64,000 bases of DNA. Origin: Alphaproteobacteria bacterium. GTDB lineage: Bacteria; Pseudomonadota; Alphaproteobacteria; Rs-D84. The notes under the pieces are model-generated. The model saw only the letters and a list, made by a program, of their open reading frames with translations, did no database searches and was not told the DNA's origin. The stretch's first letter is position 1; the number at the start of each line of letters is the position of its first letter. The stretch lies in contig SUUL01000002.1 in NCBI GenBank assembly GCA_015062545.1, positions 114,995 to 178,994 of the forward strand. The letters run 5' to 3'. Below, one piece after another: positions 1-56,189 of the stretch. Position numbers and translations under genes: made by a program.

Positions 1-150
1 CCATACTGCAACTTCTTTGCCCCAACAGGGATTTAGTTCGCATTTGCTGTATATCTGCAAAAAGACAGGTAAATAATATTTATAAATCGCTTGACAAAAT
101 AAATCTTTGTGCTATTTTTGTCTGGAATAAAGACAAAAAAGGGGGCAGTC

Positions 151-663: not shown

Positions 664-664
664 A

Positions 665-1120: not shown

Positions 1121-1124
1121 CATT

Positions 1125-1149
1125 GCCCCCGATTGGGGGCTTTTTATTT
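1125..1149 (+). terminator. rho-independent terminator (GCCCCCgattGGGGGC + T-run)
   Basis: perfect GC hairpin followed by TTTTTATTT. Confidence 0.75.
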
Positions 1150-1203
1150 GGGAATATGGGATTTTTATGATAAAATTAGTGGGATAATCAAAGGAAAAAG
1201 CAG

Positions 1204-4551: not shown

Positions 4552-4558
4552 TATTACC

Positions 4559-4582
4559 CCGCCCGATTGGGCGGTTTTTTGT
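4559..4582 (+). terminator. rho-independent terminator (CCGCCCgattGGGCGG + T6)
   Basis: GC hairpin + TTTTTTGTT. Confidence 0.75.
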
Positions 4583-4614
4583 TGGGGTGCAAATACTTAA
4601 CACATTCTCAAAAA

Positions 4615-5160
4615 TTATGGTTTGTTCTTGAATTTAGCAAAACAGTTTATGTCGCGAAAACGATTTTCATACGGTGTCCATCGTTCCTGTTTTAATACCC
4701 CCTCTAATTCATATCCCAGATTCTTTGCGACATTTACAGAACCTATATTTCGTGTGTCATTATGAATTACTATCTTGTTGATTCCGGCTTTGAATAATTC
4801 CTGTTCTAACAGACTTACGGCTTCCATCATATATCCTTTGCCACGATATTCATTTGCCAGCCAGTACCCCAGCTCCGCTCTTTTATGTTTTGTGTCAAAA
4901 GTATGTGCTGCGCAATTTCCGATGATTTCATCGTTTAATATGATGGAATATTCGTATCCCTTGCCGGATTCCCATCTTTCATCAGATTGAATCAAGAAAT
5001 TCAATGCATCTTTTGGCGACTTTATATCGTTTATCCATAACAGCCAAGGCAACAAATATTCCTTGTTTCTAATTTCTACGTCATACAGCAGTTTTGCATT
5101 ATGCATGCATGGTTCCAGGTGTACCAATTTTATCCGTGGGCCTTTTATTGTTATTTTCAT
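4615..5160 (-). CDS. GNAT family N-acetyltransferase (RimJ/RimL-like)
   Basis: 'IKLVHLEP...AELGYWLANEYRGKGYMMEAV' GNAT motifs; third RimL-type GNAT in 5 kb. Confidence 0.6.
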   Translation of the reverse strand: MKITIKGPRIKLVHLEPCMHNAKLLYDVEIRNKEYLLPWLLWINDIKSPKDALNFLIQSDERWESGKGYEYSIILNDEIIGNCAAHTFDTKHKRAELGYWLANEYRGKGYMMEAVSLLEQELFKAGINKIVIHNDTRNIGSVNVAKNLGYELEGVLKQERWTPYENRFRDINCFAKFKNKP

Positions 5161-5397
5161 AAATTTCTCCCTTTTCCTTTATGCAAATCTGTTTATATCA
5201 AACTCAAAGACTGTTTCTGATACATTATCGCGACTTTCGTTGATGTATTCTTTTATCTTTTTACCGCCCAGTAATTCGTACAGCCGGCAAAAGACCGGCG
5301 GTATCCGGCTGCAATAATTTTTTGGATTGCGGCCGCATCATCTGGCACTGCATTTCTGATTTTTACATTCATATTTGTACCTTTTTGTCTGTCATAT

Positions 5398-5868
5398 CTA
5401 TGCCCTTACCTTTTTGATTTTTGTGCGTTTTGGGATTTTCTTTAATATTACTGGTAATGTATCACGGTCATAGTTCCATGTCCATTTTATTCCGCGCATT
5501 AGGCCACGCAGTGTTTCGCGGTATGTTGTTTGCTCAATGCCAAGTTTGCGGCGGATATACCGTTTAATCTGTCGCCAAATGCGTATTGTGCGTGATGGGG
5601 ACACAATGTGTATTTCGGTTGCGCGTTTCAAGATTGGATTTACCCAGTCGGAAAATGATGCGCCCTCGGATATCCAGTCTTTGCCCTGGGCAAATTCAGC
5701 CGCCATTTCTGTGCGGGCGGAGACACTGCGTTTGCGTGGAGACACACCTGAATTGTCATGAAAAATCTCGTCTAAATGGCACAGGGGTAAATTGCGTGCC
5801 GCCGCCAACCGCCGCGCGTATGTTGTTTTGCCAGCCCCCGGCGCACCAATGACATGAATTCGTGGCAT
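5398..5868 (-). CDS. P-loop NTPase, topology-modulation protein FlaR-like
   Basis: Walker A 'IGAPGAGKTT'; overall pattern (WISEG...IHIVS...YIRRKLGIE) resembles the FlaR/AAA_28 family as recalled. Confidence 0.55.
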   Translation of the reverse strand: MPRIHVIGAPGAGKTTYARRLAAARNLPLCHLDEIFHDNSGVSPRKRSVSARTEMAAEFAQGKDWISEGASFSDWVNPILKRATEIHIVSPSRTIRIWRQIKRYIRRKLGIEQTTYRETLRGLMRGIKWTWNYDRDTLPVILKKIPKRTKIKKVRA

Positions 5869-5883
5869 TATCTGTCCTTTGTG
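5800..5883. repeat. 84-bp direct repeat copy 1 (RBS + first 22 codons of FlaR-like gene)
   Basis: 82/84 identical to 6616..6699. Confidence 0.9.
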
Positions 5884-5986
5884 GTTCGTTCTGTATTATA
5901 GAATATATATGCTGGAAAATTAACAAATTTTTAGCAGTTTTGAACTCTGTATGATATAATACAGCTTATAAAAGGGTGTAAAAACT

Positions 5987-6574
5987 ATGGATTTTATATT
6001 TGTTATTGGTCCAAGTGCTGTCGGCAAGACAACGTTGGCAAAAGAATTATATCAGCACTACAAGGGGGTGTATATTGAACAAAATATGGTTCCAGAGTTT
6101 ATTATCCCTAAAAAAGTAAAAGACGTTGGTCTATATGAAGAAAAGTTGTGTTGGGAAAACACTTTGGCGCAAATAAAATTCTTTTATAACAAGGGGCTGC
6201 GGAATATTGTTGCCTTGGATTTTGATGATATAAGGGTCAGAGAATTGCCAAAGATTTTTCATGGGTATAAATTTATAATAATCAGACTTGTGTCCAGCGA
6301 CCCAAAACAGATAAAAAAACAAATGGAACACAGAAAAAATAATGAAGGCGGATTGTACCGTCCTGAATATGTAGAACGGGCAAATTCAGTAATAAAAAGT
6401 CGCAAGTTGTTGCCAAATGAAGTAATGGTTGATGTCGCAGGGAAAAGCAAAGATAACGTGTTGAAAGAAGTTATAAAGATAATTGATAATTTCAAGCCGT
6501 TAAAAAAGTATGCTTATAAATTGGACAATAAAAATCATTATTTATCGTGGGTTCAAAGCCGAAATTTAGTTTAA
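5987..6574 (+). CDS. P-loop NTPase/kinase-like hypothetical protein (AT-rich, probably foreign)
   Basis: Walker A 'IGPSAVGKTT'; markedly lower GC than neighbours; flanked by the 84-bp direct repeats. Confidence 0.5.
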   Translation: MDFIFVIGPSAVGKTTLAKELYQHYKGVYIEQNMVPEFIIPKKVKDVGLYEEKLCWENTLAQIKFFYNKGLRNIVALDFDDIRVRELPKIFHGYKFIIIRLVSSDPKQIKKQMEHRKNNEGGLYRPEYVERANSVIKSRKLLPNEVMVDVAGKSKDNVLKEVIKIIDNFKPLKKYAYKLDNKNHYLSWVQSRNLV

Positions 6575-6615
6575 TAATTCGTCTTTAATTTTAACAATTC
6601 CGTTCATGAATTATG

Positions 6616-6699
6616 CGCCGCCAACCGCCGCGCGTATGTTGTTTTGCCAGACCCCGGCGCACCAATGACATGAATTCGTGGCATTATCCGTCCTTTGTG
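6616..6699 (-). pseudogene. duplicated 5' fragment of FlaR-like gene (RBS+ATG+~22 codons, then stop)
   Basis: direct repeat of 5800..5883; reading frame terminates immediately after the repeat. Confidence 0.8.
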
Positions 6700-6920
6700 C
6701 AACGAAAATTAGTATAATTGAACAATATATCTTTTTCAAGAATATATGACAAACTCTGATAATAGTTGTAAAATCCGTTGGATTCTTGCACCAGTATGAA
6801 CAAGCCGTGAAGAGCCAAAATTACCGCAGATTTCTGCGGATTTTTTATTTCTTTCTTCTAAATAAAAACCGATTGTACTTTCTGTCAAGGGGTCATTCAG
6901 ACGAAAGTCTAACAAAATAC

Positions 6921-42376: not shown

Positions 42377-42577
42377 TTATTTATCCCCCCTGCCCCGCGT
42401 TATGTGCGTTTCAATCTGTTGTACCAATGCACGCTGGGATTCATGCCAACGCAACTGAAAATCTGTCGCGTTGCATCCCAATGTGCGATTCAATATCGTG
42501 TCACGCAAATGCTGTAATACCGCCATACCCGCAGGTGTGGAAAAACAGCGCGCATACTGTAAATCAATATCTGTCAT
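42377..42577 (-). CDS. phage-cluster hypothetical protein
   Basis: 66-aa ORF tightly packed after portal gene. Confidence 0.35.
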   Translation of the reverse strand: MTDIDLQYARCFSTPAGMAVLQHLRDTILNRTLGCNATDFQLRWHESQRALVQQIETHITRGRGDK

Positions 42578-42580
42578 CTG

Positions 42581-43810
42581 TTATTCCCCCAAGGCCGTTT
42601 CAATCGCCGTCATTTGGGCAATAGGTGCAATATATTTCAATTCTGCATCACCATGTAATGTTATTGGCGCAATAACACCACGACTGGATAATATCTGTAA
42701 TCCACGGTCACATAACGGCCTGATAAATTCATGCAACAAGCGACCATACGTCGCACCCAATATACGCATCATGTCTGCGTTGCGTGCCATAATTTCTGTG
42801 GCTGTCATTTCTTTTTCAGACAATAACCCCAGTCTGTCCGCCAATAATGCATGGCGAATACGTTCACGCAAATCTTTCAACACCAGTTGCGATACATCAA
42901 AGTCCGCACCACTGGCCAATGGCGTTAAGCCTGACGAACCAACCGCCTTGGGGATAATTGCGCCGGGGGTTAAATTGATGTTATTCAGGTTTATTACACC
43001 GTCATCGTCCGCCTGCCAGATGCCGGATACGGCAATTGTTGCATTCTTTAATACCAATTCTACAACCTTGTTGGCGGTTTTTATATCCGGTAATGCACGC
43101 AAGACAGGACCGCGACCATATAATTCACCCGATGATACAGACCAACGAAAGATAATATATGGATTCGTTTCAAATGTACCTGTGGACACAATATTATTTT
43201 CAATATCACCACCAACATCCAACCAGGCTGTAAATTCTGTACCAACCAATGACTGGACCAGTTTTAATGGTGTTTCTGGATTCTGTTTAATGGTGTCGCG
43301 CAGGTTGTTGGGCGGTGTCCATGTTGGATAACGTTCCATGACTTCACATGCCGGCATTGATGTAGTGTGAAATACTGCGTTGGGTAAAATGGCAATGTCT
43401 GACATCGGAATCGCTGTAAATGTAAACGCAGATGACGCGCCAATCGGCGATTGTGCCATAAATAAGCAAGCCGTCCCCAAAACGACCAAGTCCATATAAC
43501 ATTGATGTATAACTGTGTAAAAATTAGAATCGTTCAGATTTGCACGTAATGCGTTTGTGGCATATTCTGCATCTGGTGACATGATGCTTTCTGGGACAAG
43601 TGTTAACCACATAGATTCTGGCGGGGTTAACAATGTATAAATTGATGCCGCCAAATTATCTGCCGCATCCATCGCAGTTGCATCAAACAATGTTGCCGCA
43701 TCATCATCGGCAGTTGGCATGGTATATCTGCGCGCGCTGTCCCAGCGGTTTTGCCATGGGGCGCGCATATCCAAGGCGCGTTTATATAAACTTTGCAGGT
43801 TTTGTTGCAT
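42581..43810 (-). CDS. T7-like portal (head-tail connector, gp8-like) protein
   Basis: N-terminal 'YKRALDMRAPWQNRWDSARRYTMPT...DNLAASIYTLLTPPESMWLTL' parallels T7 gp8 'YERLKNDRAPYETRAQNCAQYTIPS...NNLASKLMLALFPMQTWMRLTI' (from memory). Confidence 0.6.
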   Translation of the reverse strand: MQQNLQSLYKRALDMRAPWQNRWDSARRYTMPTADDDAATLFDATAMDAADNLAASIYTLLTPPESMWLTLVPESIMSPDAEYATNALRANLNDSNFYTVIHQCYMDLVVLGTACLFMAQSPIGASSAFTFTAIPMSDIAILPNAVFHTTSMPACEVMERYPTWTPPNNLRDTIKQNPETPLKLVQSLVGTEFTAWLDVGGDIENNIVSTGTFETNPYIIFRWSVSSGELYGRGPVLRALPDIKTANKVVELVLKNATIAVSGIWQADDDGVINLNNINLTPGAIIPKAVGSSGLTPLASGADFDVSQLVLKDLRERIRHALLADRLGLLSEKEMTATEIMARNADMMRILGATYGRLLHEFIRPLCDRGLQILSSRGVIAPITLHGDAELKYIAPIAQMTAIETALGE

Positions 43811-43839
43811 AAGGTTTCTCCTTTGGTTTTGTGTTATGT

Positions 43840-44706
43840 TTATATGTTGAAATTCGTGTTGGCTGAAAATGTCTTTATCGTGCCACCCAATGGGCGAATA
43901 AGTGTTGCAGGATGTGCAATCGCACCGGCAACGGCATCCAGGCCGTCATCATGCATGCCATGCGCCATGGGAGACCACCCCAACATTTCTGCCATCAAAG
44001 GGGTCTTTTGCACGCGAATATGTGCATGCAAATGTCCCGTTGTTAAAACTGGTTCAATCGCGTCTAAAATTCTGTCTGATTTGGCCCGAACGTTTGATAC
44101 GCGGGTTACGTAAATGCATAAGCCACGCCGCGTGGCACAATCGCGCATTATTTCCGGCAAGCCACCACCAATCCCGTTCGTTTCAATAGTTATCCGATGC
44201 AAACCACGCGCATGCATAAAATCCAGAACTTGATTGCACTGATTGGACAATGGATATTGTTCCGTATCAGACACCGTCAAATACAAAATGTCATGAATAA
44301 ATACATTGCGCGCCTTGTCATCACGATACAGTAACACACACGCACTGCCGTCACGATTGCGGCGACCACTGGATGGATCCCAATATAAAATGCTGCCGGT
44401 TATTAAATTATTACCCAGTTTTGCCGTGCGTGGTTCAAATTCGTCATCATAGAAATGCAGACTGCCGGGATCAAGGCGCGCACGTTCGGGCGAAATAAAT
44501 TCCAACATCATTTGTGCCGAAAAATGTCGCGCACCAACCGTTTCACGCATACTGTTTATCTTTTCAATCGGAAAAAGTTCCGGCCACGCGGGATTTCCCG
44601 CCGTATCAACAATGGGAATTTTTAATAATTTATACCCACTTAAAAAAGGCGTTGAAAAAGCAAAATTTTCATATACCATGGGCATAGAAGAAAAGGATTT
44701 TGACAT
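43840..44706 (-). CDS. terminase large subunit, C-terminal nuclease domain (separate ORF)
   Basis: 'DPSSGRRNRDGSACVLLY' first catalytic Asp motif and terminal 'MHDDGLDAVAGAI' motif; the open frame has no upstream ATG beyond an internal ATG at 44706 preceded by a GGGGG RBS. Confidence 0.6.
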   Translation of the reverse strand: MSKSFSSMPMVYENFAFSTPFLSGYKLLKIPIVDTAGNPAWPELFPIEKINSMRETVGARHFSAQMMLEFISPERARLDPGSLHFYDDEFEPRTAKLGNNLITGSILYWDPSSGRRNRDGSACVLLYRDDKARNVFIHDILYLTVSDTEQYPLSNQCNQVLDFMHARGLHRITIETNGIGGGLPEIMRDCATRRGLCIYVTRVSNVRAKSDRILDAIEPVLTTGHLHAHIRVQKTPLMAEMLGWSPMAHGMHDDGLDAVAGAIAHPATLIRPLGGTIKTFSANTNFNI

Positions 44707-46270
44707 GGATTTTACCCCCAAAACATTACCCACCAATCTGGAAGCAGAACAGGCCGTATTGGCCGCGGTTTTAATGAATAATCGCGCATTGGAACGTGTG
44801 TCAGAATTCTTGCGGGCAGAACACTTTTCACACCCCGCACATCAAGAAATATTCCGTCTGGCAGAACGTCAATTCGCCGCAGGCATACCGTTTGATATTA
44901 TTACCGCAAAAAACTATCTGGATCAGCAAGGCGTGTTGGAATCTGTTGGCGGGGTTGATTATCTGACACAATTATCTGGCGCAGGTGCAACCGTTGTTAA
45001 TGTAGAGCAATATGGACGTATCGTTTATGAACACGCATTACGCCGTGATTTGATTGCGTTGGGCCAAGATATTACAGACAAGGCCTTTATTGAAGATTTG
45101 GATAATCCTGTGGCGCGTCAGATTGAATTGGCCGAACAGAAACTGTTTGATATGGCAACCGCAGGTGCATCTGAACGCGAAGTAACATCCATTTCAACCG
45201 CATTGGAATCTGCATTGAAAGAAGCAGAAATCGCATACAAGGCCGATGGGCAGTTATCCGGTCTGACAACTGGATTGACCGCACTGGATAAATCAATCAG
45301 TGGCTTGCACCATTCTGACTTGATTATTATCGCGGGCCGTCCGGCGATGGGTAAGACAACATTGGCGATGAATATCGCGTTTAATGCCGCCAATGCCATT
45401 GCATACAATCGTGCAAATCAAAATTATAAAGGCGCGGTTGTGTTCTTTAGTCTTGAAATGTCGGCATCACAGTTGGCGGCGCGTGTGCTGTCTTCACAAT
45501 CCAAAATTCCTGCATCTGCAATGCGTGAAGGAACACTGACCGATGAAGATTTCTTGAAAATGTCACAATATTCTGCAGCCATTGGTAAAGTTCCGTTATT
45601 CATTGATGACACGCCAGGTATGTCCGTACCAATGATGCGTACACGCGCCAGAAGACTGGCACGCAAACATGGCGGTATTGCATTAATCGTCATTGACTAT
45701 CTGCAGTTGATGACCGCCCCAGGTGGCAAACGCAGCGATAACCGGGTACAGGAAATTTCTGAAATTACCCGTGGTCTGAAAATGCTGGCCAAGGAACTGG
45801 ACGTGCCTGTAATCGCACTGTCACAGTTGTCGCGAAGCGTGGAATCACGTGATGACAAACGACCACAGTTGGCTGACTTGCGCGAATCAGGGTCTATTGA
45901 ACAAGACGCGGACATCGTTATGTTTACGTATCGCGAAGAATATTATCTGCAAAATCGCGACCCGTCCGAAAGATTATCAAACACAACAAACAGCACAATG
46001 GTCGAATCGTGGCAAAAAAGACTGGAACGCGCACGCGGCAAAGCAGATATTATTATCGGTAAAAACCGTCACGGCCGTCCAGAAACTGTACGAACTGCAT
46101 TCTTTGGGGATTACAGCTTGTTCGATAACCTGGACGAATTCCAAACACGGGGCGAAAATGAATTTGCACAACCTGCACCAACAATTTCCGCAGCCGCATT
46201 GGGGCCAGACCCCGAATTTGAACCAACCGCCATCGATATTGATGCAATCCCAGATGATATGCCAATGTAA
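44678..46270 (+). CDS. dnaB: replicative DNA helicase DnaB
   Basis: 'LEAEQAVLAAVL' N-domain, Walker A 'AGRPAMGKTT', 'IVIDYLQLM', 'VIALSQLSR'; start is either 44678 or 44705. Confidence 0.85.
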   Translation: MGIEEKDFDMDFTPKTLPTNLEAEQAVLAAVLMNNRALERVSEFLRAEHFSHPAHQEIFRLAERQFAAGIPFDIITAKNYLDQQGVLESVGGVDYLTQLSGAGATVVNVEQYGRIVYEHALRRDLIALGQDITDKAFIEDLDNPVARQIELAEQKLFDMATAGASEREVTSISTALESALKEAEIAYKADGQLSGLTTGLTALDKSISGLHHSDLIIIAGRPAMGKTTLAMNIAFNAANAIAYNRANQNYKGAVVFFSLEMSASQLAARVLSSQSKIPASAMREGTLTDEDFLKMSQYSAAIGKVPLFIDDTPGMSVPMMRTRARRLARKHGGIALIVIDYLQLMTAPGGKRSDNRVQEISEITRGLKMLAKELDVPVIALSQLSRSVESRDDKRPQLADLRESGSIEQDADIVMFTYREEYYLQNRDPSERLSNTTNSTMVESWQKRLERARGKADIIIGKNRHGRPETVRTAFFGDYSLFDNLDEFQTRGENEFAQPAPTISAAALGPDPEFEPTAIDIDAIPDDMPM

Positions 46271-46347
46271 TTGATAATTATTTTCTTGCGCCGTGCCGAT
46301 AAATTGACTATTATTTTGTCAAGAAATAACTGTTTTAGGAGTTAGAC

Positions 46348-47355
46348 ATGGCACAAGAAGAAATTATCTTTCCAAATAATATTCGTAACATCCGTTTGGC
46401 AAATGGTATGAAAATGACAGAACTGGCGCGTCAGGCCGGGTTGTCTTTGTCCGCTGTTTCCAAAATCGAAAAAGGTGTGCGCCGATTAAACCAAAAACAG
46501 TTGTTGAATATTTGCAATATCTTGGGATGTAAATTGTCCGATATTTTCATCAAAGAATCCGATGATGTCGCAAACCAATGGCAAGATGAAATTAAACGCC
46601 GTATGACAGACAATGAAAATAATGGTCTGAAAATATTCGGCAGTGGTCTGCGCAAAATCCGCCAACAGGCCGGCAAAACAATCGCCCGTGCCGCAAAAGA
46701 TGCAGGTATGACATTGTCTGTATATCACAAGATAGAAGTCGGACAACGTGAAATATATACCAATGAAATTGAACCGTTGGCAAAATCTTTTGCATTAGGC
46801 GCAGAAGAACTGTTTGAAAAAATCGCGAATCTGTACAAGTCTGGCGAACTGAACAAACACATGAACAAGGTCAAAGAACGTGTAAAATCTGTATTGGAAC
46901 CCGGCAGTCCATTGTCTGGTATCGATATGGGTGGTGGACTGTATGGCGCAAAATTGTATGACAGTGCACGTAAAAAACTGATTCCTGTGTTTGGAACACC
47001 ATCTGGCAAAGCATTAACCTTGAAGAAATCAGATAAAACCATGATTGTCGCACCAATATCACTGGAGGGACGTAATGGTATTTACGCAGTGGTACCAAAT
47101 GCCAAACGTTTGGGTGGAATCATACCTGAAAAATCTTATGTGTTTGCAGATGCGTTGGTAACACCAAAAGTTGGTGATATGGCAATCTGTATGGATGTTG
47201 ATTTTGATACACTGGATGCAGATACCAACGTGGTCGCGCATATCGTAACAGTAAAACAAGATGCCAAGGGTAAGATTTACGGTCAAGCCATGTTCCCAGA
47301 AGAAAAAATTAATGCCAAAACAATGCACAAAATTATTATGATTGTTATGGAATAA
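46348..47355 (+). CDS. CI/LexA-like repressor: two HTH_XRE domains + S24 peptidase-like C-terminus
   Basis: two 'LS.SAVSKIEKG / ...TLSVYHKIEVG' XRE HTH units; C-terminal beta-rich domain with Ser/Lys spacing like the S24 family. Confidence 0.55.
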   Translation: MAQEEIIFPNNIRNIRLANGMKMTELARQAGLSLSAVSKIEKGVRRLNQKQLLNICNILGCKLSDIFIKESDDVANQWQDEIKRRMTDNENNGLKIFGSGLRKIRQQAGKTIARAAKDAGMTLSVYHKIEVGQREIYTNEIEPLAKSFALGAEELFEKIANLYKSGELNKHMNKVKERVKSVLEPGSPLSGIDMGGGLYGAKLYDSARKKLIPVFGTPSGKALTLKKSDKTMIVAPISLEGRNGIYAVVPNAKRLGGIIPEKSYVFADALVTPKVGDMAICMDVDFDTLDADTNVVAHIVTVKQDAKGKIYGQAMFPEEKINAKTMHKIIMIVME

Positions 47356-47385
47356 TTACCCCCCTTTGGAAAGGAGAGAGCAAAC

Positions 47386-48024
47386 ATGAAAGCAACCGCA
47401 CGCGTAACTGCACAAAGACTGTTAAATCTGTATCGGCAAGAACATGTAATTATTGGCGGATGGGCCGCCGTAAACCCAATATTTGTCCAAGATGCAACTG
47501 ATATGGTTATGCAAGAGTTGGCCGATATGCCAACAGGAAATGCATTAATCGCACATATCAATAATCTGCGCAGCGGTAAAACCCCAATGAATTCTATTGA
47601 ACGCGAATTATTACCATACGGTGGCATGATGGCAGAAGCGTTGCCATCAATCACACTGAACCAAAACCAATGGCAAGAATTGACCCAGGCAATAGAACAA
47701 TTTACCCCAAATCAGCCAGGTTTGGACAAGTTTACTGCGTTGGATGTGGTACGTCAATTCGGTGCAGAATGGCCAACCGCAATTCGTGCAATCCTGACAG
47801 AACGCCCGCATTTGTTAGAAAAGTGGGCAACCATTAACCAAACATATAACGCATATAAATTATGGAATACCGCACATGAAATTATCGCAAATCCACTGTC
47901 GGAACGTGTGCGCGCCCAAGTACAGGCAGACATGCCAGAATATGAAACTTATTTGCCGATGTTTGGTGATGCAGGTTCGGAATTATTGGTAAAACTGCGC
48001 ACTTTTATCAGCAGTCTGAATTAG
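47386..48024 (+). CDS. hypothetical protein
   Basis: 212-aa ORF; its stop overlaps the convergent terminase ATPase ORF stop. Confidence 0.4.
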   Translation: MKATARVTAQRLLNLYRQEHVIIGGWAAVNPIFVQDATDMVMQELADMPTGNALIAHINNLRSGKTPMNSIERELLPYGGMMAEALPSITLNQNQWQELTQAIEQFTPNQPGLDKFTALDVVRQFGAEWPTAIRAILTERPHLLEKWATINQTYNAYKLWNTAHEIIANPLSERVRAQVQADMPEYETYLPMFGDAGSELLVKLRTFISSLN

Positions 48025-48626
48025 TTTCCGATTGCAGTGCGGTAAATCGTATCGTACGCATGCGGTGTACCAATATATATCATCGTTCCGGTTGGCGACA
48101 ATATAAAATCTAATTCACGTAATCTTTCACGCAAATTTTCACGTTTCTGTGCGGTGTTTGCCGTGTTTGGAACCTCTACGTCATCGCATATAATCAAATC
48201 TGCACGCATACCGGTGATATTTCCGTGTACCCCTTGGCAAATTACAGACGGTTCGCGAATACCAATCGGGCGTTTAACAGTGATACGACCCGTGGCCCAC
48301 TCTTTTTTACCAACAGGTATCATATCAGTACACCATGGATGATTTTCTAAAATATGCCTGATATGACCAACCATACGTGTTGCCAGACCACTTTCCGCCG
48401 ACAAAATCAAAATTCTGGTTTCTGGGCGCAGGTACAAAACACATGCTGCAAAAACGCCAACCACCGTGGATTTGCCAGAATGACGAAACGCCATCAACAA
48501 TCCACGATGTGGCGACACAGATAATATATCAACCAAGAAATTCATTATTCGCCGATGATGTGCCGGTGTCTGATATCCCAAAACACGATTCCATTCGTCT
48601 AAAAACGCGTTAAATTCCGTATTCAT
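48021..48626 (-). CDS. terminase large subunit, N-terminal ATPase domain (separate ORF)
   Basis: Walker A 'AFRHSGKST', Walker B 'LIICDDVE', motif III 'YIGTPH'; terminates right after motif III. Confidence 0.7.
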   Translation of the reverse strand: MNTEFNAFLDEWNRVLGYQTPAHHRRIMNFLVDILSVSPHRGLLMAFRHSGKSTVVGVFAACVLYLRPETRILILSAESGLATRMVGHIRHILENHPWCTDMIPVGKKEWATGRITVKRPIGIREPSVICQGVHGNITGMRADLIICDDVEVPNTANTAQKRENLRERLRELDFILSPTGTMIYIGTPHAYDTIYRTAIGN

Positions 48627-48650
48627 TTTGGCAATATCCCAAGAAGCAGG

Positions 48651-48998
48651 TTATCCAACAATGTCATCCAATCTGGATAATAAAGATTGTAATAATTTGG
48701 GCTTTTTGACGGCGGATTCTTTAATTTTCTTTAAGTTATTTTTGCGTTTTTCTTCATAAGGTGCCGCCGTTTCTGATTTCAGACGTTTCAAAACCGCCCC
48801 TTGGGTTATGCCATCACCAGACACGCCAGATGCACCATATTTGGCGCGTTGACTGGCCAAAACCTTTTTTATCAGATTTGTTTTTTCAGTTTCGTCTGCC
48901 GCCATTTGCGCCAAGATTTCTTTACGCGCAGATTTTGCAGATTTTTTGGCATCTTTGTATTCCAAGATGTCCGTTACATCAGATACAATTTGTCCCAT
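48651..48998 (-). CDS. hypothetical protein (position suggests terminase small subunit)
   Basis: 115-aa basic/helical protein immediately upstream of terminase ATPase ORF. Confidence 0.3.
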   Translation of the reverse strand: MGQIVSDVTDILEYKDAKKSAKSARKEILAQMAADETEKTNLIKKVLASQRAKYGASGVSGDGITQGAVLKRLKSETAAPYEEKRKNNLKKIKESAVKKPKLLQSLLSRLDDIVG

Positions 48999-49022
48999 AT
49001 TTTATCCTTTTTTTTAATAAGT

Positions 49023-50753
49023 TTAGACAGAATACCAACCATGTATGCACACAGATGAAACTGTGGCGGGGTATGCCGCGCTGCCATGTAATGTCCATAA
49101 TGGACGCGTGCCGTCATGACTGGTTCCTAAACAATTTAACGATACATCGCCGGTAAAACCGTTGGATGCAGTGTCATAAATGTCATTAGGCAACACAGCC
49201 TGATGAGTGTTTATATAAATAGATTTCGTATCAATGATACGCACAACAATCTTGCGTAATTTTATCCGGGTAACATTATGATTAGATATGCGTAATGGTA
49301 ATGAAGATGCACAAAATGAATAGTCATATTCATCTGCATCACGTAACGCATTACTGTCAAAATATTCCAAGAATACTTGGCCATCGCGCAATACAACAAC
49401 ATACGTTTTCTGATTACATACGGTGACAGATAAAAATTGTCCCGATGTTCTGTATGTACCCCATGCAGATACACCCAAAGCCGCATTTTGATTCAAAACC
49501 GCCATGGTGCCGTCTTGTTTTACGATAAACAACTGGTGCAAGGATTCGTTGTATGCAATATCCAATGGATTTTGTATCAAATGCTTGGATAACATGCTTA
49601 GATCATTGGCATTGTAATGTTCACCCAATTCATCCAGACTTAGTTCGCGAATATCGCAACCGTTGGCAGAAACAAAAACTGTTGCGCCTTCTATGCGTTG
49701 GGGCGGTAAGTATCGCGCGGAATAAGAACCAACAGATGTGTGCTGTTTGATATCAACAGACGAAGGTGTCAGGGGTTTACTGGATATGGCCCATTCGCCA
49801 ACATTGGTTAATATTTGCAAATTATCACTGCTGACCACGGTACATATTTGTTGACGCTGTTGCGACAACAAAGACAGAAAGATGCCTTCGTCATCCAAGC
49901 CTGTGCCAACAGAAAAGTTTTGGTGATTGCCGACATGTGACATCCATATCCCAGATGGCCAATCACGTGAACCACCAAATACCAATCTGTCTTGGTGAAA
50001 TGTTATACTGCGCGGCCAACCACGATGTTTACTAAAGGCGGCCTCGCGCCAATCTGTGATTGCGGTATCTGTTGCAGTATAAGAACCATTGGTAAATACT
50101 GTGACCTGGGTTTCATTAATATATTCTGTAATAACCCACTGACGATTCTGAAGATACAGACGTGTATTAACATAATCAGGTGTCCAAAACGCACGATTGG
50201 TGCTGAACACTGCGTAATTATTTCCCAATGAACTGGTGCTGATTTGAATCTGAACATCAGATGCATCTTCAAATTTTACAAATGGAATATTCAATGTCAT
50301 GTCTGAATCGTTGCGCGAAAAAGCAAAATCAGACATATAAAATCTGCCACTGTCCCAATATAATGTTTGTGGCACATAATCAGGATGAACAAATATCATC
50401 GTCCCAAAACGCTGGGCATATTGAATATTAAACAAGTCATCATATCCCCAAGGTGTTATCAAATCTTGGAATAAGTTATTGTCACGATATATAAACATGT
50501 GACAATCGGTCAATACAATTAAATATTCTAAATTGTCCGATGCAGAAAATGGTATCAAACGTGCATGACCGTCCAGTAACGCAACAGATGTTAAACCACA
50601 TCGCCGCCGCAGACCACCACCTGACAAGACATCCATATTTTCCAGACGTGACAGACCATGAATATTATCATGGTTGTAAAATTCTGGGGCAACTTCGCCA
50701 TTTGCAAATGAACTTTGTGTTTTTATAAAATCAGACATGTTATATTTCCCCAT
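49023..50753 (-). CDS. T7 gp12-like tail tubular protein B (short form)
   Basis: N-terminal 'FANGEVAPEFYNHDNIHGLSRLENMDVLSGGGLRRR' parallels T7 gp12 'LKGGISQQPDILRYPDQGSRQVNGWSSETEGLQKRPP' (from memory); follows the gp11-like gene. Confidence 0.45.
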   Translation of the reverse strand: MGKYNMSDFIKTQSSFANGEVAPEFYNHDNIHGLSRLENMDVLSGGGLRRRCGLTSVALLDGHARLIPFSASDNLEYLIVLTDCHMFIYRDNNLFQDLITPWGYDDLFNIQYAQRFGTMIFVHPDYVPQTLYWDSGRFYMSDFAFSRNDSDMTLNIPFVKFEDASDVQIQISTSSLGNNYAVFSTNRAFWTPDYVNTRLYLQNRQWVITEYINETQVTVFTNGSYTATDTAITDWREAAFSKHRGWPRSITFHQDRLVFGGSRDWPSGIWMSHVGNHQNFSVGTGLDDEGIFLSLLSQQRQQICTVVSSDNLQILTNVGEWAISSKPLTPSSVDIKQHTSVGSYSARYLPPQRIEGATVFVSANGCDIRELSLDELGEHYNANDLSMLSKHLIQNPLDIAYNESLHQLFIVKQDGTMAVLNQNAALGVSAWGTYRTSGQFLSVTVCNQKTYVVVLRDGQVFLEYFDSNALRDADEYDYSFCASSLPLRISNHNVTRIKLRKIVVRIIDTKSIYINTHQAVLPNDIYDTASNGFTGDVSLNCLGTSHDGTRPLWTLHGSAAYPATVSSVCIHGWYSV

Positions 50754-50760
50754 TTAATAA

Positions 50761-51318
50761 TTAAAAACGTGTACTGATTAGTGAAAACTCTTGGATTCCA
50801 TCAGCCACCGATATTGTACTGTCTATGAATTTTGCCGTTTGCAATTCTGATTCATACAGTGCCGCCAACGTGCGAAATACGGTCTGATTTCCCGTCAATG
50901 GAATACAAAATTCCATTGCCAAGCGTGTTGCCAACATGGATACAAAATAACTGGGGTATGTGTCTGGTGTCATACGCACAATCGCCAAAATTTTAATTGA
51001 TTCACTGGACGATTCTATGTATTTTCCAACCAATTTGCCATCAGATTTCAACACACGCAGAACATTATCAGGAACCAAAAAATTACCATCTGAATTTTTT
51101 CTCAATGATATTTCTTGGGTTGCAAAATGCCACGGATGTATTGACAGCAAAGAATCCGCCACAGCATCATACAACGTACGCGCCAACCGCGAATTCACCG
51201 AATCATCTGTCCAGGATTGAATTGGACTTTCACCCAACTTTAACAAGGCCATTGAACATAAATCTAGTTTTGTAAGCATTGGTATTCCTTTTTGTATTAT
51301 AAAAAACAAGGGCGACAC
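50761..51318 (-). CDS. T7 gp11-like tail tubular protein A
   Basis: 'LDLCSMALLKLGESPIQSWTDDSVNSRLARTLYDAVADSLLSIHPWHF' parallels T7 gp11 '[22 protein letters not shown]...[21 protein letters not shown]'. Confidence 0.55.
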   Translation of the reverse strand: MSPLFFIIQKGIPMLTKLDLCSMALLKLGESPIQSWTDDSVNSRLARTLYDAVADSLLSIHPWHFATQEISLRKNSDGNFLVPDNVLRVLKSDGKLVGKYIESSSESIKILAIVRMTPDTYPSYFVSMLATRLAMEFCIPLTGNQTVFRTLAALYESELQTAKFIDSTISVADGIQEFSLISTRF

Positions 51319-51343
51319 AAAATGCCGCCCGACAATATATAAA

Positions 51344-51574
51344 TTAAGCCAACGAAACCGTTGTTACATTCAATTCTGTTATATTAATTTTCTTGATGGC
51401 TGTATTATCAGATGCATTAATCATGATAATGTCGCCAATGTTCATCAATGTTTTAACATTGTTGAAATATCCATTGGCGGTAATTGTTGCCAATGTTTCA
51501 TTTGCACTGTAATGCCACAATGTAAATCCATTAGCATACGCGATAACAGATAAATTTTTATTCTGAAATGCCAT
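51344..51574 (-). CDS. hypothetical protein downstream of capsid gene
   Basis: 76-aa ORF. Confidence 0.3.
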   Translation of the reverse strand: MAFQNKNLSVIAYANGFTLWHYSANETLATITANGYFNNVKTLMNIGDIIMINASDNTAIKKINITELNVTTVSLA

Positions 51575-51614
51575 GTGTTTTTCCTTTTGGTTTATGATTT
51601 ATTCAAATTGTGAT

Positions 51615-52436
51615 TTATTGTGCATCTGAACATTTAACGCGAACGATGCCATCACCATCAATCAAAACTGCGCCTTGGGACATGCTGTTGCTGATAAAGT
51701 GTGCCGCACGTTCACCATGCCAAGAAATATCTGTTTTGACTTCTTGACCACATGCATGACCGATGCTGGATGCGTGATAAATAAAGCAATCGCGGTTATC
51801 AGATGACACAGGTAAACCATTATACAACACCCATGTAATACCCAACCATTTGCGCGCTTCAAATCCATTTACCAATGGGCTGGCATTACCAACATAATCT
51901 GCAGACACAAATTCATCCATTGACAGCAATTCATTCCACTGATGTACACCAACAACCGCAAAGCGGCGACCATCATCTGGGACATCATTTGTGTTCAACA
52001 CTTCAACCGCAGACAAGATTAAATCTTTGGTCAAACCGGTGGAATAGTCACCAACATTTGCAGTTGCTGTATTCATGGCAGACACAATCAATTCATCTGT
52101 CTTGCGACCCAATGCGTACGCACCCGCAGATGCGACAACGCGGCGTTCATCAACATTTACCTTTAATTCATCCAATGCATCAACCCAATCGCCCGCATAA
52201 TAATCTTGCAAAAGACATTCTACGGGTTCATGATTCAAATTCATCACAGGAACAATGCCATGACGAGATTTGGTACTGGCGGTGCCACGACCAACTTTTT
52301 GAAAAGTTGTAGATGCGCCAACAACACCAGATTTACTGCGTACTGTTGAACGTAATTTGGTGCCCATTTGCTGATAAGCCAAATGAACATCTGCTTCGAA
52401 TTGTTTCACAAAAACATTATCTATGGAAACAGACAT
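51615..52436 (-). CDS. T7-like major capsid protein (gp10 family)
   Basis: 'FEADVHLAYQQMGTKLRSTVRSKSGVVGASTTFQKVGRGTAS' parallels T7 gp10A 'VLTAFARTSVTTSRHMVRSISSGKSAQFPVLGRTQAA'; start at the Met with an AAAGGA RBS. Confidence 0.65.
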   Translation of the reverse strand: MSVSIDNVFVKQFEADVHLAYQQMGTKLRSTVRSKSGVVGASTTFQKVGRGTASTKSRHGIVPVMNLNHEPVECLLQDYYAGDWVDALDELKVNVDERRVVASAGAYALGRKTDELIVSAMNTATANVGDYSTGLTKDLILSAVEVLNTNDVPDDGRRFAVVGVHQWNELLSMDEFVSADYVGNASPLVNGFEARKWLGITWVLYNGLPVSSDNRDCFIYHASSIGHACGQEVKTDISWHGERAAHFISNSMSQGAVLIDGDGIVRVKCSDAQ

Positions 52437-52654
52437 AAAAAATCCTTTGGTTAAAAAGTTAAAATTACGATGTGATAACACACATCACCAAAATTTTGTA
52501 TTTTGGTTATGCAAATTAATGCGCCATAAAAAACAAAAGCTATCGGGTTCGTATAAAACGAATTATCCATAAAAAATATCAGTCAGACTGTACGTAATCA
52601 TCTGACTGATACTTTTGAAAAACCCCCGCATCGCGGGGGCTGATATATTGTTAA

Positions 52655-53092
52655 TTATTTTTTCTTAACAACTTTTTTTGCAGCTGGTTTTTTTGCAACT
52701 ACTTTCTTTGCAACTGGTTTTTTTGCAACCGGTTTTTTTGCAACTGGTTTTTTTGCAGCTACTTTTTTTGCAACTGCTTTTTTTGCAACTGGTTTTTTTG
52801 CAACTACTTTTTTTGCAACTGGCTTTTTTGCAGCTACTTTCTTTGCAACTGGCTTTTTTGCAACTGCTTTTTTTGCAACTGGCTTTTTTGCAGCTACTTT
52901 TTTTGCAACTGGTTTTTTAGCTGCTACTTTTTTTGCAACTGGTTTTTTTGCAACAGGTTTTTTAGCTGCTACTTTTTTTGCAACTGGTTTAACCGCCGCT
53001 TTCTTTGCAGGTGCAGCTTTTTTTGCAACAGGTTTTGCAACAGGTTTAACCGCTGCTTTCTTTGCCGCAGATTTTCTAAATAAGAATGCCAT
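52655..53092 (-). CDS. Lys/Ala-rich histone H1-like (Hc/AlgP-like) DNA-binding protein
   Basis: 145 aa, almost entirely [10 protein letters not shown] pentapeptide repeats encoded by 15-nt tandem DNA repeats. Confidence 0.6.
52676..53070. repeat. tandem 15-nt repeat array (coding for [10 protein letters not shown] units)
   Basis: visible periodic 'ttttttgcaactggt/ttttttgcagctact' units. Confidence 0.85.
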
Positions 53093-53198
53093 TCTTTCTC
53101 TCCTTGTTATGGTTTTGGATAGAACAAACCCTTTTTGTTCTTACTTTGTATTTTATCTTAAACACAAAACTTAGTAAAGAAGAAAGTGATATTTTTTC

Positions 53199-53855
53199 TT
53201 ATGAATATAATTTTTTAAAACCATTTTCTATTTTTCTGATGTATTCAGAATCATTATCACGCCAATATTTTGGATCACGCATCATACGCCGCAAATCTGC
53301 ATCTGTTAAATTTTGCGTATCATTATTTGCAGTATGAACATCTGGTTCCATCGATTGCATCATCTTGTACATGCTTTGAATTCCCTGGGGTGTGGCGCAT
53401 AACGCATCAAATGCATCACGTGGTAAAAATTTTTCACCAAATGAATTTATTGCAACCAGTGCATCTTTCATTTTTTCATCACCACCGAAAAAATGTTTTA
53501 ATTCATTTATTGCTTTGCTTTCATTTTGAACAGAATACAAATCTGAAATCACAGGTGATAAAAATTCATTTGCAATGTTATAAATTTTTTCAACTTGCGA
53601 ACAGGTTAATCCTATTTCAAAAAATTTGTTACGTAAATTTTCATCATCATATAATTCGTGTGTTGGATATTCTGATGCAGATTCTGGAACACCAATCGCA
53701 CGATTAAATTTATAACGCGTTTGTTCGTCAGAATTTTCATTTGGAACAGATATCATTGTTCCAATCTTTTTTTCTAATTCAGTGTATGATTTTATTAATG
53801 CTTCTGAATTAAGTGTACCGTCTTTGTTCAAAAATTTTTCTGGGATATTATCCAT
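53199..53855 (-). CDS. hypothetical protein (scaffolding-protein position)
   Basis: acidic helical 218-aa protein between lysis genes and capsid, at the T7 gp9 position; AAAGGA RBS. Confidence 0.3.
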   Translation of the reverse strand: MDNIPEKFLNKDGTLNSEALIKSYTELEKKIGTMISVPNENSDEQTRYKFNRAIGVPESASEYPTHELYDDENLRNKFFEIGLTCSQVEKIYNIANEFLSPVISDLYSVQNESKAINELKHFFGGDEKMKDALVAINSFGEKFLPRDAFDALCATPQGIQSMYKMMQSMEPDVHTANNDTQNLTDADLRRMMRDPKYWRDNDSEYIRKIENGFKKLYS

Positions 53856-54045
53856 TATTTTTTCCTTTGGTTTCATTAGATTTACGCAGAAAATAAATTC
53901 CCCCTAATGTGAATATCGCTTGCAACATCGTAAATATATCTGTGTCGCCAACCAGGTATGCCGCAACCGCAGATATAATTCCCGTTGCAGAAATTATATA
54001 TGTGCGATATCCAGATAACTGACCGCCCTTGATTATTTTTTTCAT
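53848..54045 (-). CDS. holin-like small membrane protein
   Basis: 65 aa, two hydrophobic segments, charged C-terminus; directly downstream of endolysin. Confidence 0.4.
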   Translation of the reverse strand: MKKIIKGGQLSGYRTYIISATGIISAVAAYLVGDTDIFTMLQAIFTLGGIYFLRKSNETKGKNNG

Positions 54046-54056
54046 CTTGATTCCGA

Positions 54057-54467
54057 TTATAAGTAAAACAACATGCCATCAATATCTGCAATATACCCAC
54101 GCGCAACCGCCCAAGACGGCAAAACATCTGTGTTATGAAATCTGGTCGCACCAAAACACATATCAACCAACCCACCAGACAACATGCGGCGCGCAACACG
54201 TACACACATCTGAAAACCACGATTATTTGCGGGAACACTTAACCGTGAATAACGTGCAGAATCAGTACATAATGCGTCAAAAATATTTTTATCTGTCACA
54301 ATACTGTATATGTCTGTACCAGATGCATCAGATAAATTTTTTATCATTGATGTCAGTGCTTCTACACCAAGTAAAGTATTTGCACCCGTTTGTGCATAAA
54401 CAACACGTGCAATTTTGTATGCCAACGCAGCACCCGTATCGGTGTTCTTGATTAATGTCATTTGCAT
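54057..54467 (-). CDS. cell-wall hydrolase (SleB/CwlJ Hydrolase_2 family) endolysin
   Basis: 'IARVVYAQTGANTLLGVEALTSMIKN...IYSIVTDKNIFDAL' matches the Hydrolase_2 pattern (AEARGE..G..AVA.VVLNR...QF). Confidence 0.5.
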   Translation of the reverse strand: MQMTLIKNTDTGAALAYKIARVVYAQTGANTLLGVEALTSMIKNLSDASGTDIYSIVTDKNIFDALCTDSARYSRLSVPANNRGFQMCVRVARRMLSGGLVDMCFGATRFHNTDVLPSWAVARGYIADIDGMLFYL

Positions 54468-54632
54468 GCCGAAAAAACCTTTTGGTAAAAAAATTGCCAT
54501 GCATAATGCATGACAATAAAAAAACCACAACGCATGTTGTGGGCAGTATCTTAGCTGTTCATGTTCATGATGTTATCATATTTTTACTTAAAAGTCAAGA
54601 TAAAAATATAAACCCGCGGATTTCCGTGGCTT

Positions 54633-55313
54633 TTACGCGATTATTTCATCGCCATAAACCAACAGATATCGTGTGTCGCGCCGCAAAACCAATGCGCCAT
54701 TTTCATTAATACCGATTAATTCTGCCGGTTCGCCCTGGTATTTAACCATGCGGTTCAGGCACCCCGCCAATTCTGTCCAACGCGCACGAACCGCACGAAA
54801 ATCCGCGCGCCGCCATTTATCAATATTACGCATCAAGCGATTTAATAATTCGTTCATTGGAATTTCAGAATAATTGTCCAGTTTTGTGGTCTTGTATCTG
54901 TCCACAGTTGGATTGGAATTTACATTTATACCAATTCCAACAATAACAAAACGCCCCGAATACTCAATCAATGTACCAGCAACCTTGCGGTCATCTATTA
55001 AAATATCATTAGGCCATTTGATTGTCGGATGAATACCAAAAGATGCGATTGTTTCCGCAATCGCCACCGCCACAGAATACGACAGGCGCGGGTCACGTTC
55101 CGGGCAATCAAAAATAAAACTGATATACAAATTGCCATGGTGCGATACCCACGAACGGCGATACCTGCCACGGCCGGCAGATTGTGCCGCCGCCAAAATC
55201 GCGGTATGATCCGTTGCGCGCCCAGACACAATTAGTTCATGTGCGTAATCTTGGGTGCTGGGGATTTTATCCAAAGATATTAACTTATAACTTGCCAAGA
55301 CTGTACACCCCAT
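54633..55313 (-). CDS. birA: biotin--[acetyl-CoA-carboxylase] ligase (class I, no HTH)
   Basis: 'AQSAGRGRYRRSWVSHHGNLYISFIF' BirA signature. Confidence 0.85.
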   Translation of the reverse strand: MGCTVLASYKLISLDKIPSTQDYAHELIVSGRATDHTAILAAAQSAGRGRYRRSWVSHHGNLYISFIFDCPERDPRLSYSVAVAIAETIASFGIHPTIKWPNDILIDDRKVAGTLIEYSGRFVIVGIGINVNSNPTVDRYKTTKLDNYSEIPMNELLNRLMRNIDKWRRADFRAVRARWTELAGCLNRMVKYQGEPAELIGINENGALVLRRDTRYLLVYGDEIIA

Positions 55314-55796: not shown

Positions 55797-56042
55797 TTAT
55801 TCGCGCCCTGTATCAGGAACGTCTATAAACTTGGTAAAATCCTGAATTTTAGCCCCAGTGGACGATAAAATTTTGGAAATACTGTTTGTAGAAGGCCATC
55901 GCGGTTGCCCTTCTTTTGACCAACGTTTACTTTTGTTAAATGTTGTCGGGTCTAATCCGCTGCACTTTGCCAAACCGGAACAAGACATTCCATGTTCTGT
56001 TGCAAAGCGTTCTATGGCGCGCCAAACATCGTCATGTGTCAT
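55797..56042 (-). CDS. HTH transcriptional regulator (alphaproteobacterial CI-like N-domain)
   Basis: 'DVWRAIERFATEHGMSCSGLAKCSGLDPTTFNKSKR...RWPSTNSISKIL' is the common alphaproteobacterial short repressor pattern. Confidence 0.6.
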   Translation of the reverse strand: MTHDDVWRAIERFATEHGMSCSGLAKCSGLDPTTFNKSKRWSKEGQPRWPSTNSISKILSSTGAKIQDFTKFIDVPDTGRE

Positions 56043-56189
56043 TTTTTCTCTCCCTCTTGTTGCACGTCAGAATATTTTTCTATTCCAGACAACATTGATT
56101 TTATTCCAGAAATCCGGGCAATACAACAAGTACCATTTCCTAGGAATATACTAAAAAAACAAACACAAAAAATTTTTTTGACAAAACAC

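Follow-up and report, generated by a model that had tools for sequence, protein, structure and literature searches.

Histone H1-like polycations have been described in bacteria mostly from obligate intracellular pathogens, in which they bring about compaction of the nucleoid. The chlamydial proteins Hc1 and Hc2 (HctB) and the Coxiella protein Hq1 are stand-alone, extremely lysine- and alanine-rich proteins made of pentapeptide repeats and encoded by organisms with reduced genomes. Among these, Hc2 ranges from 165 to 237 amino acids (aa), its length varying through lysine-rich pentamers (PMC2848022). AlgP of Pseudomonas and the H1-like proteins of Bordetella and Burkholderia are likewise basic, carry repeats of the KPAA or AKKA type and are regarded as DNA-binding. 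The gene analyzed here, for which the working name KAP gene is used, encodes a Lys/Ala/Val/Pro polycation in Candidatus Enterousia (order Rs-D84, Alphaproteobacteria). It occupies positions 52655–53092, on the minus strand, of a 64,000-nt stretch of contig SUUL01000002.1 (assembly GCA_015062545.1), referred to below as the window, and it lies within a phage-derived gene cluster, between the genes for a scaffolding protein and the major capsid protein. Judged from sequence, the protein belongs to a type that is already known, whereas its placement is new relative to the searchable literature.

The KAP gene starts with an ATG at 53092–53090, ends with a TAA at 52657–52655 and encodes 145 residues, among them 55 lysines, 41 alanines, 28 valines and 15 prolines, with six other residues and no aspartate or glutamate, yielding a protein of about 15 kDa with 38% lysine and a net charge of about +56. 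Repeats begin at about residue 8 and are encoded by a tandem array of about 21 units of 15 nt (52673–52990, minus strand), for which Tandem Repeats Finder reports periods of 30 and 45, both multiples of the 15-nt unit, with 84–86% matches and scores of 412–419. The AlphaFold2 model of the protein has no secondary structure and no folded part (predicted local distance difference test 58, predicted template-modeling score 0.10), and the protein is accordingly predicted to be intrinsically disordered; neither a signal peptide nor a transmembrane segment is found in it. The original prediction, made from the letters of the window, had located this open reading frame (ORF) exactly, leaving its strand unstated, and its account of a 145-aa protein of pentapeptide units on 15-nt tandem repeats is borne out by both the repeats and the composition. 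The slot that it assigned to the gene is also correct, with a PF05396 scaffolding protein encoded upstream and a PF19821 capsid protein downstream.

Capsid relatives with 86–96% identity occur in 396 species-representative genomes, all of them metagenome-assembled genomes of Ca. Enterousia or uncultured gut Alphaproteobacteria, from which 80 species-level loci (L001–L080) were retrieved for comparison. In 77 of the 80 loci the capsid gene is preceded, at a distance of about 200 bp and on the same strand, by an ORF rich in Lys, Ala, Pro and Val, a recurrence far beyond chance; the remaining three loci are cut off upstream. The 70 full-length orthologues span 72–164 aa (median 127) with an overall composition of 36% Lys, 31% Ala, 14% Val and 11% Pro, begin with a common motif, M-[AGV]-F-x-[FL]-[FLK]-K, and all end in TAA. 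A C-terminal KK[AP]CAKKK motif with one to three cysteines, 4–5 residues apart (e.g., KKPCAKKACAKKK), is present in 63 of them; the copy in the window and six other orthologues are devoid of C-terminal cysteine. Protamine-like disulfide cross-linking or metal binding by these cysteines are guesses at their use.

One reading of such a repetitive gene is that the 15-nt repeats act as DNA, in the manner of iterons or a pac-like site, or that they are a misassembly, and that the ORF is incidental. The regularity of the repeats is in keeping with this, and other frames are open as well: an 80-aa ORF on the plus strand (52678–52920), which is a shadow of the KAP repeat, and a second frame on the same strand, open for 83 codons (52668–52916), which would give SCKK repeats and is again a repeat shadow. 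Across species, however, the repeat unit varies from 5 to 38 aa, with dominant periods of 5, 9, 10, 14, 15, 16, 19, 20, 24 or 28 aa, while composition, frame, start, Shine-Dalgarno (SD) sequence, stop and terminal motifs are kept, which indicates that what selection maintains is composition and frame rather than a motif in the DNA. The reading frame is preserved in the 70 orthologues despite many indels, every one of which is in frame. Moreover, the identical 145-aa protein is encoded by 21 independently assembled contigs, which excludes the collapse of repeats during assembly that the original prediction had raised as an objection. The non-coding or artefactual origin is thereby largely refuted on sequence grounds and is very improbable, and the KAP gene is confirmed, by these comparisons, as a real and functional gene.

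Length variation, which had been anticipated from the tandem repeats, is observed both between species (72–164 aa) and within one species (145 versus 130 aa), as in the repeat-number polymorphism of Hc2. The comparison of repeat copies across strains that had been proposed as a check recovered one variant among 18 contigs sharing an identical capsid gene: this contig (L166) encodes a 130-aa version through a clean in-frame deletion of 45 nt, or three units, in a stretch of 716 bases that shows no other difference. The variant was characterized by DNA alignment, since BLASTP of the 145-aa and 130-aa proteins returned no matches, owing to low-complexity masking. In another locus (L036, 18–243) the upstream ORF runs partly in the SCKK-type frame and then in the KAP frame, owing either to a frameshift in that copy or to a mistake in its assembly. 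The KAP gene of the window contains 15 A-runs of 7 nt or longer, and its expression may be prone to slippage.

The resemblance to Hc1/Hc2, AlgP and Hq1 put forward in the original prediction holds at the level of an H1-, Hc2- or AlgP-like polycation, but homology to Hc2 cannot be demonstrated beyond periodicity and composition. The KAP protein scores 76.6 bits against the Pfam HC2 family (PF07382; gathering threshold 40), and five composition-matched shuffles give no match, but the reversed KAP sequence also exceeds the threshold, at 48.5 bits, and the match therefore reflects pentapeptide periodicity and not demonstrable homology. The NCBIfam models for Hc2 (NF038052; 49 bits, cut-off 135) and for the Burkholderia/Bordetella H1-like proteins (NF038053; 49.8 bits, cut-off 80) are not reached, no other domain is detected by Pfam or NCBIfam, no family for the protein is present in PHROGs, and an exact-sequence cluster look-up gave no match. 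A search of 5.8 billion proteins returned compositional matches only, in the form of K/A/P tails on RsfS, DksA, SWIB, MetJ, HU, L30 and response regulators, and revealed no KAP orthologues in other contexts; judged from such sequences, the KAP-type polycation is a generic, presumably nucleic-acid-binding module. The KAP protein differs from Hc2 and Hq1 in its conserved hydrophobic N-terminal motif, in the C-terminal Cys motif of its orthologues, in its location inside a phage-derived cluster and in belonging to a host with no known developmental cycle, and it differs from AlgP in lacking a structured N-terminal domain ahead of the repeats. By analogy, it would act like these proteins and like the C-terminal domain of histone H1, but assigning it to the Hc2, Hq1 or AlgP family would not be justified.

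Between the scaffold and capsid genes, the KAP gene forms a self-contained promoter-to-terminator unit, as established by sequence only. The 106-bp region upstream of the gene is almost invariant between species and holds a promoter, a palindrome and the SD sequence. The sigma-70-like promoter (TTTACT-17 nt-TAAAAT; 53150–53178, minus strand) lies 20 nt after the scaffold stop codon and is nearly invariant in 70 orthologous upstream regions, and the SD sequence (AGGAGAG; 53098–53104, minus strand) stands 5 nt before the ATG and is present in 68 of 70 orthologues, which disposes of the absence of a ribosome-binding site as a reason to doubt translation. Between the -10 element and the SD sequence lies a perfect palindrome, AGAACAAA-N5-TTTGTTCT (53121–53141, minus strand), which occurs once in the window and once per locus, always in the same place, in all 68 loci covering the KAP 5' region, and which is a candidate operator or 5'-untranslated-region hairpin of the KAP gene. 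The alphaproteobacterial LexA box is a direct repeat, GTTC-N7-GTTC; the palindrome is an inverted repeat with 10–12 nt between its GAAC and GTTC cores, and a reading as LexA box was rejected for this reason. Directly 3' of the KAP TAA are two tandem intrinsic terminators (52569–52641, minus strand), a GC hairpin with a U-run and a CAGUCAGA...UCUGACUG hairpin with a U-run, in a region that folds with a ΔG of -37.5 kcal/mol (z = -7.5). At least one GC hairpin followed by a T-run is found after the KAP stop in all 70 orthologues, and at least two in 54 of them, with 33 different stem arms among the 70, so that pairing is kept and sequence is not. Both the promoter and the terminators would presumably be active.

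A candidate regulator of the KAP gene is encoded nearby. An 81-aa Cro/CI-type helix-turn-helix (HTH) protein (55797–56042, minus strand) is the product of the most conserved gene of the neighborhood, with 79–98% identity and a ratio of nonsynonymous to synonymous substitution rates (dN/dS) of 0.02. Upstream of this gene, a -10 element (TAAAAT) is followed by an AGAAyA...TrTTCT-like palindrome (about 56067–56088), in a layout recalling the KAP promoter, and this site comes close to the KAP palindrome in two of the loci (L028 and L039). A second candidate for binding the KAP palindrome is the 335-aa double-HTH protein encoded at 46348–47355.

The gene transfer agents (GTAs) of Alphaproteobacteria, such as RcGTA, CcGTA and BaGTA, are vertically inherited, phage-derived head-tail-lysis clusters under purifying selection, and the cluster around the KAP gene resembles them in all these respects. 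It extends over 42377–54598 on the minus strand, with an interval on the plus strand (44612–48024) inside it, and comprises a complete but rearranged T7/pelagiphage-like set of lysis, scaffold, capsid, tail tube A and B, split terminase and portal genes. Gene order from PriA through BirA, the cluster, XRE and DnaB is identical in 80 of 80 loci, these conservation counts stopping short of the second block of the cluster (42377–44736), before which the loci end. In comparisons against 20 loci, in which dS is saturated, dN/dS is 0.05 for the capsid protein, a 76-aa protein and the ATPase half of the terminase, and 0.11–0.23 for other cluster genes, as compared with 0.08 for BirA. The possibility that an active prophage occupies a common integration site was considered and rejected given the saturated dS, the fixed synteny, the essential dnaB gene inside the cluster and the lack of any integrase seen. 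The original prediction had spoken of a capsid module, and the KAP gene does lie within one; what surrounds it is, however, no ordinary prophage, but, as judged from sequence and gene order, a vertically inherited, rearranged, phage-derived cluster under purifying selection in one fixed chromosomal context. Since synteny extends over the whole region in every species, the position of the KAP gene provides by itself no argument for a role in a particle.

The cluster looks like a new GTA-like element of podovirus type, carried by genomes smaller than 1 Mb. The genome of Ca. Enterousia is of this size, reduced and probably associated with a dependent lifestyle, and the paper describing it mentions neither phage, nor capsid, nor histone (PMC12306168). 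Complete Enterousia genomes are available as contigs of 0.89–0.97 Mb. The searchable literature yielded no description of the cluster, and none of a histone-like protein encoded in the capsid module of a tailed phage. GTAs known from Alphaproteobacteria are of the HK97/siphovirus type, whereas the Enterousia cluster is T7/pelagiphage-like; its gene for the terminase large subunit (TerL) is split by DnaB-XRE-p212, a truncated tail-fiber gene is missing from the window, and, unlike the GTAs, it is known here from its genes alone.

Following the direction of transcription, the first cluster gene (54057–54467, minus strand) encodes a 136-aa, endolysin-like cell-wall hydrolase, related to PF07486 with an E-value of 8.5e-6, just under the Pfam cut-off, and to the phrog_938 endolysin. 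It is followed by a gene for a 65-aa membrane protein (53848–54045, minus strand), with hydrophobic segments identified by eye, which is kept in all loci, matches no family in profile searches and may be a holin, given its position. The scaffolding protein of T7 gp9 type (53199–53876, minus strand; PF05396, E = 1.2e-8; dN/dS 0.19) shows homology to the scaffolds encoded by L082 and by Pelagibacter phage Hodr. Beyond the KAP gene lies the 273-aa major capsid protein (51615–52436, minus strand; PF19821, E = 7.6e-71; phrog_3437), for which the homology-supported ATG at 52436 was taken as start, the mechanical ORF beginning at 52481. Downstream, in an order kept in all loci and still on the minus strand, are the genes for the 76-aa protein (51344–51574), the tail tubular A-like (50761–51318) and B-like (49023–50753) proteins and a 115-aa protein (48651–48998), and then the TerL ATPase half (TerL-N; 48021–48626; phrog_38 positions 271–462); dN/dS ranges from 0.05 to 0.18 across these genes.

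The terminase large subunit is encoded by two ORFs, between which stand genes on the opposite strand (44612–48024, plus strand) for a 212-aa protein (p212), a double-HTH protein (XRE) and the host replicative helicase DnaB, the latter passing the PRK09165 equivalog cut-off. The junction of TerL-N, p212, XRE and DnaB is found in every locus reaching that far. Beyond DnaB, in the second block, lie the nuclease half of the terminase (43840–44736; phrog_38 positions 483–703), the portal (42581–43810) and a small Hodr-p96-like ORF (42377–42577), all on the minus strand. Profile searches of the cluster proteins revealed neither gp14–16-like core genes nor a prohead protease gene, and a T7-type small terminase gene was not seen here either. 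In most loci the 115-aa gene is separated from TerL-N by a further ORF of about 180–190 aa (MYKISY..DG..TEF.F.FPFF...; for instance at 8207–8757 in L001 and 9814–10382 in L002), which is absent from the window (48626–48651) and from about a dozen other species; it was likened, by eye alone, to the N-terminal adaptor domain of the T7 tail fiber gp17 and has the length of that fiber N-terminus only. Outside the cluster, ribosomal protein L9 (56484–57089, minus strand) ends in an acidic, Glu/Ala/Val-rich C-terminal stretch of about 45 aa (…KKVEESEEAPAAEEVVAEETVAAAAPVAEESAADAE), an unusual feature in an L9 protein.

Phage morons, as described for lambda bor and lom and for HK97-type phages by Hendrix and colleagues, are single extra genes inserted between late genes that are adjacent in relatives, and they carry their own promoter and terminator inside an operon apparently read by antitermination. 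The free-phage relatives of the Enterousia cluster allow the same comparison to be made. No K-rich ORF occupies the slot between scaffold and capsid genes in Pelagibacter phage Hodr (44% capsid identity), in MT838907 (63%) or in about 60 IMG/VR phage contigs (46–61%). In these relatives the slot is empty or is taken up by an ORF of about 150 aa that is GNAT-like, or by unrelated ORFs with lengths of about 84 or 183 aa, and the two genes are adjacent in L082 and in many IMG/VR phages. Enterousia-type IMG/VR contigs with a capsid identity of at least 80%, including lineages with a GC content of 34–36%, do contain the KAP gene. A divergent lineage of 52% GC, with a 77% identical capsid (L101; IMG/VR 2820136564_000001, 1–6725), keeps the capsid, the 76-aa protein, a truncated tube A, tube B, a 115-aa-like protein and a TerL-N abutting DnaB directly, and has an opposite-strand membrane-protein gene where scaffold and KAP genes would stand. 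The KAP gene is, as far as these sequences allow it to be placed, a lineage-specific insertion in a slot that is variable among related free phages, and the combination of this insertion with a promoter and terminators of its own makes for classical moron architecture. Known morons, however, ride mobile prophages, whereas the KAP cluster is fixed and the KAP gene universal in its lineage, and we know of no histone-like moron.

The leader of the cluster (54486–54598, minus strand) comes immediately after BirA and precedes the first cluster gene. It holds a near-consensus sigma-70 promoter whose -10 element is extended (TTGACT-17-TAACAT; 54598–54570), followed by two intrinsic terminators (54542–54525 and 54517–54493). 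Of 67 loci, 66 have the promoter and 60 have two or more terminators, whose stems differ. This layout is like that of lambda PR'-tR' and suggests that the cluster is switched on by antitermination or terminator read-through. The CcGTA cluster is reported to be controlled by activation and antitermination (bioRxiv 10.1101/2023.11.12.565669). Antiterminated transcription would also pass the KAP terminators. The leader of the capsid gene is strongly conserved (GGACCC...TTTTGTTTTATGGCGCA...GCATAACCAAAA) and contains a conserved hairpin or palindrome, TTATGGCGCA...TGCATAA (52507–52529, minus strand), whose loop varies in length and whose stem shows compensatory changes in two loci (L078 and L079), and which could be a processing or antitermination element. 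No sigma-70 promoter for the capsid gene is evident in this leader, and a reading of its TGGCGCA...TTGCAT sequence as a sigma-54 promoter was rejected, its spacing being inconstant across species (9–12 nt). Rfam returned no RNA family for the hairpins or leader within 51500–54700.

Given its composition and the behavior of its studied analogues, the KAP protein most likely binds and condenses DNA. As envisaged for the C-terminal domain of histone H1, chlamydial Hc2, Coxiella Hq1 and AlgP, the polycation would bind DNA non-specifically, by charge neutralization, and compact it. Two modes of expression may be proposed from the anatomy of the locus. While the particle genes are silent, the KAP protein would be made alone, with the terminators insulating the capsid gene; under antitermination of the cluster, its synthesis would accompany that of the head proteins, and a second role during particle production is possible. 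Stand-alone proteins of KAP-like composition, such as Hc2, Hq1, AlgP and BpH1, are DNA-binding, and condensers of the Hc1, Hc2 and Hq1 type are known from reduced-genome, dependent organisms such as Ca. Enterousia resembles. In this context, the primary target of the KAP protein is tentatively taken to be the nucleoid of the cell itself, in a regulated, Hc2/Hq1-like role to which we would give a little less than an even chance. The original prediction had offered both a host nucleoid protein and a packaged DNA condenser, and the sequence evidence tips only slightly toward the former.

The alternative closest to hand is a condenser or cargo associated with the particle, made abundantly with the head proteins for a GTA-like particle that lacks T7-type core proteins. 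The gene lies between those for scaffold and capsid, on the same strand, and the three stay together in every locus that extends far enough upstream; the promoter and strong SD sequence of the KAP gene would make its product more abundant than the capsid protein, and co-expression is expected under an antiterminated cluster leader. Precedents exist for basic proteins that travel with DNA in a capsid, namely the T4 internal proteins IPI–III and adenovirus VII and mu, whose basic character the KAP protein shares. The T4 internal proteins have a short N-terminal capsid-targeting sequence. The conserved N-terminal hydrophobic and C-terminal Cys motifs of the KAP orthologues are compatible with such a role, and the protein might then be loaded into the procapsid through its N-terminal M-A-F-x-F motif to neutralize the packaged DNA or, alternatively, might compact the chromosome of the producer cell for packaging. 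The failure to see gp14–16-like core genes in the cluster and the use of the same promoter-gene-terminator device by the T7 capsid gene fit this reading as well.

Against this stand several features of the locus. Free-phage relatives with the same capsid and scaffold neither have nor need the KAP protein, the palindrome is private to the KAP gene and shared by no other cluster gene in the window, tandem terminators separate the gene from that of the capsid, and linkage is uninformative in a region that is syntenic as a whole in all species. In contrast with T4 and adenovirus, the KAP protein, known from sequence alone, bears no sequence relation to their internal proteins, and its cluster contains no prohead protease to process a targeting peptide. 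A histone-like protein packaged by a tailed phage or GTA was not found in the literature, and none is known to us. A role in the particle is viable but somewhat less likely, and the private regulatory palindrome, the tandem terminators insulating the capsid gene, the dispensability of the protein in free phages with the same head and the uninformative nature of its conserved position are what lead us to favor, slightly, a role on the host nucleoid.

Several points weigh against the nucleoid role in turn. DNA binding by the KAP protein is deduced from its composition. The gene shares its strand with the head-assembly block and lies inside it, and antitermination of the cluster would bring about its expression along with that of scaffold and capsid. 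In T7, a similar arrangement (phi10-gene 10-Tphi) raises the output of the most abundant structural protein, and the anatomy of the KAP unit is compatible with a structural or cargo role. To our knowledge, proteins of the Hc2 and Hq1 type are without a conserved hydrophobic N-terminal motif, and that of the KAP protein could be a targeting or interaction peptide. The complement of dedicated nucleoid proteins does not help here: no HU or IHF gene was found in the window by tblastn with an approximate E. coli HupA query, a result that is uninformative in a window amounting to about 7% of the genome.

A further possibility is that the KAP protein is no DNA condenser and has another target, either ribosomes and RNA or an anionic membrane or envelope. 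Similar K/A/P tails on ribosome-associated and other non-nucleoid proteins (RsfS, DksA, L30) would fit the former, and a hydrophobic N-terminal tetrapeptide followed by a polybasic stretch would fit the latter. The protein lacks, however, a signal peptide or transmembrane segment, the studied stand-alone proteins of such composition bind DNA (Hc2, PMC2848022), and positive evidence for another target is nil, making this improbable. A more specific form of the particle role, in which Enterousia, and probably the wider Rs-D84, produces a podovirus-type GTA-like particle carrying the KAP protein as DNA-condensing cargo recruited through its N-terminal motif, appears doubtful. If true, this would be the first case of a histone-like protein packaged with DNA in a particle derived from a tailed phage; the loss of the internal-core proteins and the splitting of the terminase might belong to the same story.

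The KAP gene represents a previously unrecognized and universally conserved case of an H1-like polycation in uncultured, genome-reduced gut Alphaproteobacteria, wired independently within a domesticated cluster. Should the favored role on the host nucleoid be true, it would imply a regulated state of chromatin compaction, and perhaps a developmental cycle, in Ca. Enterousia; should the protein act in the particle instead, it would constitute a new way to pack DNA in a tailed-phage-derived capsid. The cluster itself, with its antitermination-style leader, a terminase split around dnaB and a truncated tail-fiber gene that is missing here, may outweigh the KAP gene in importance.

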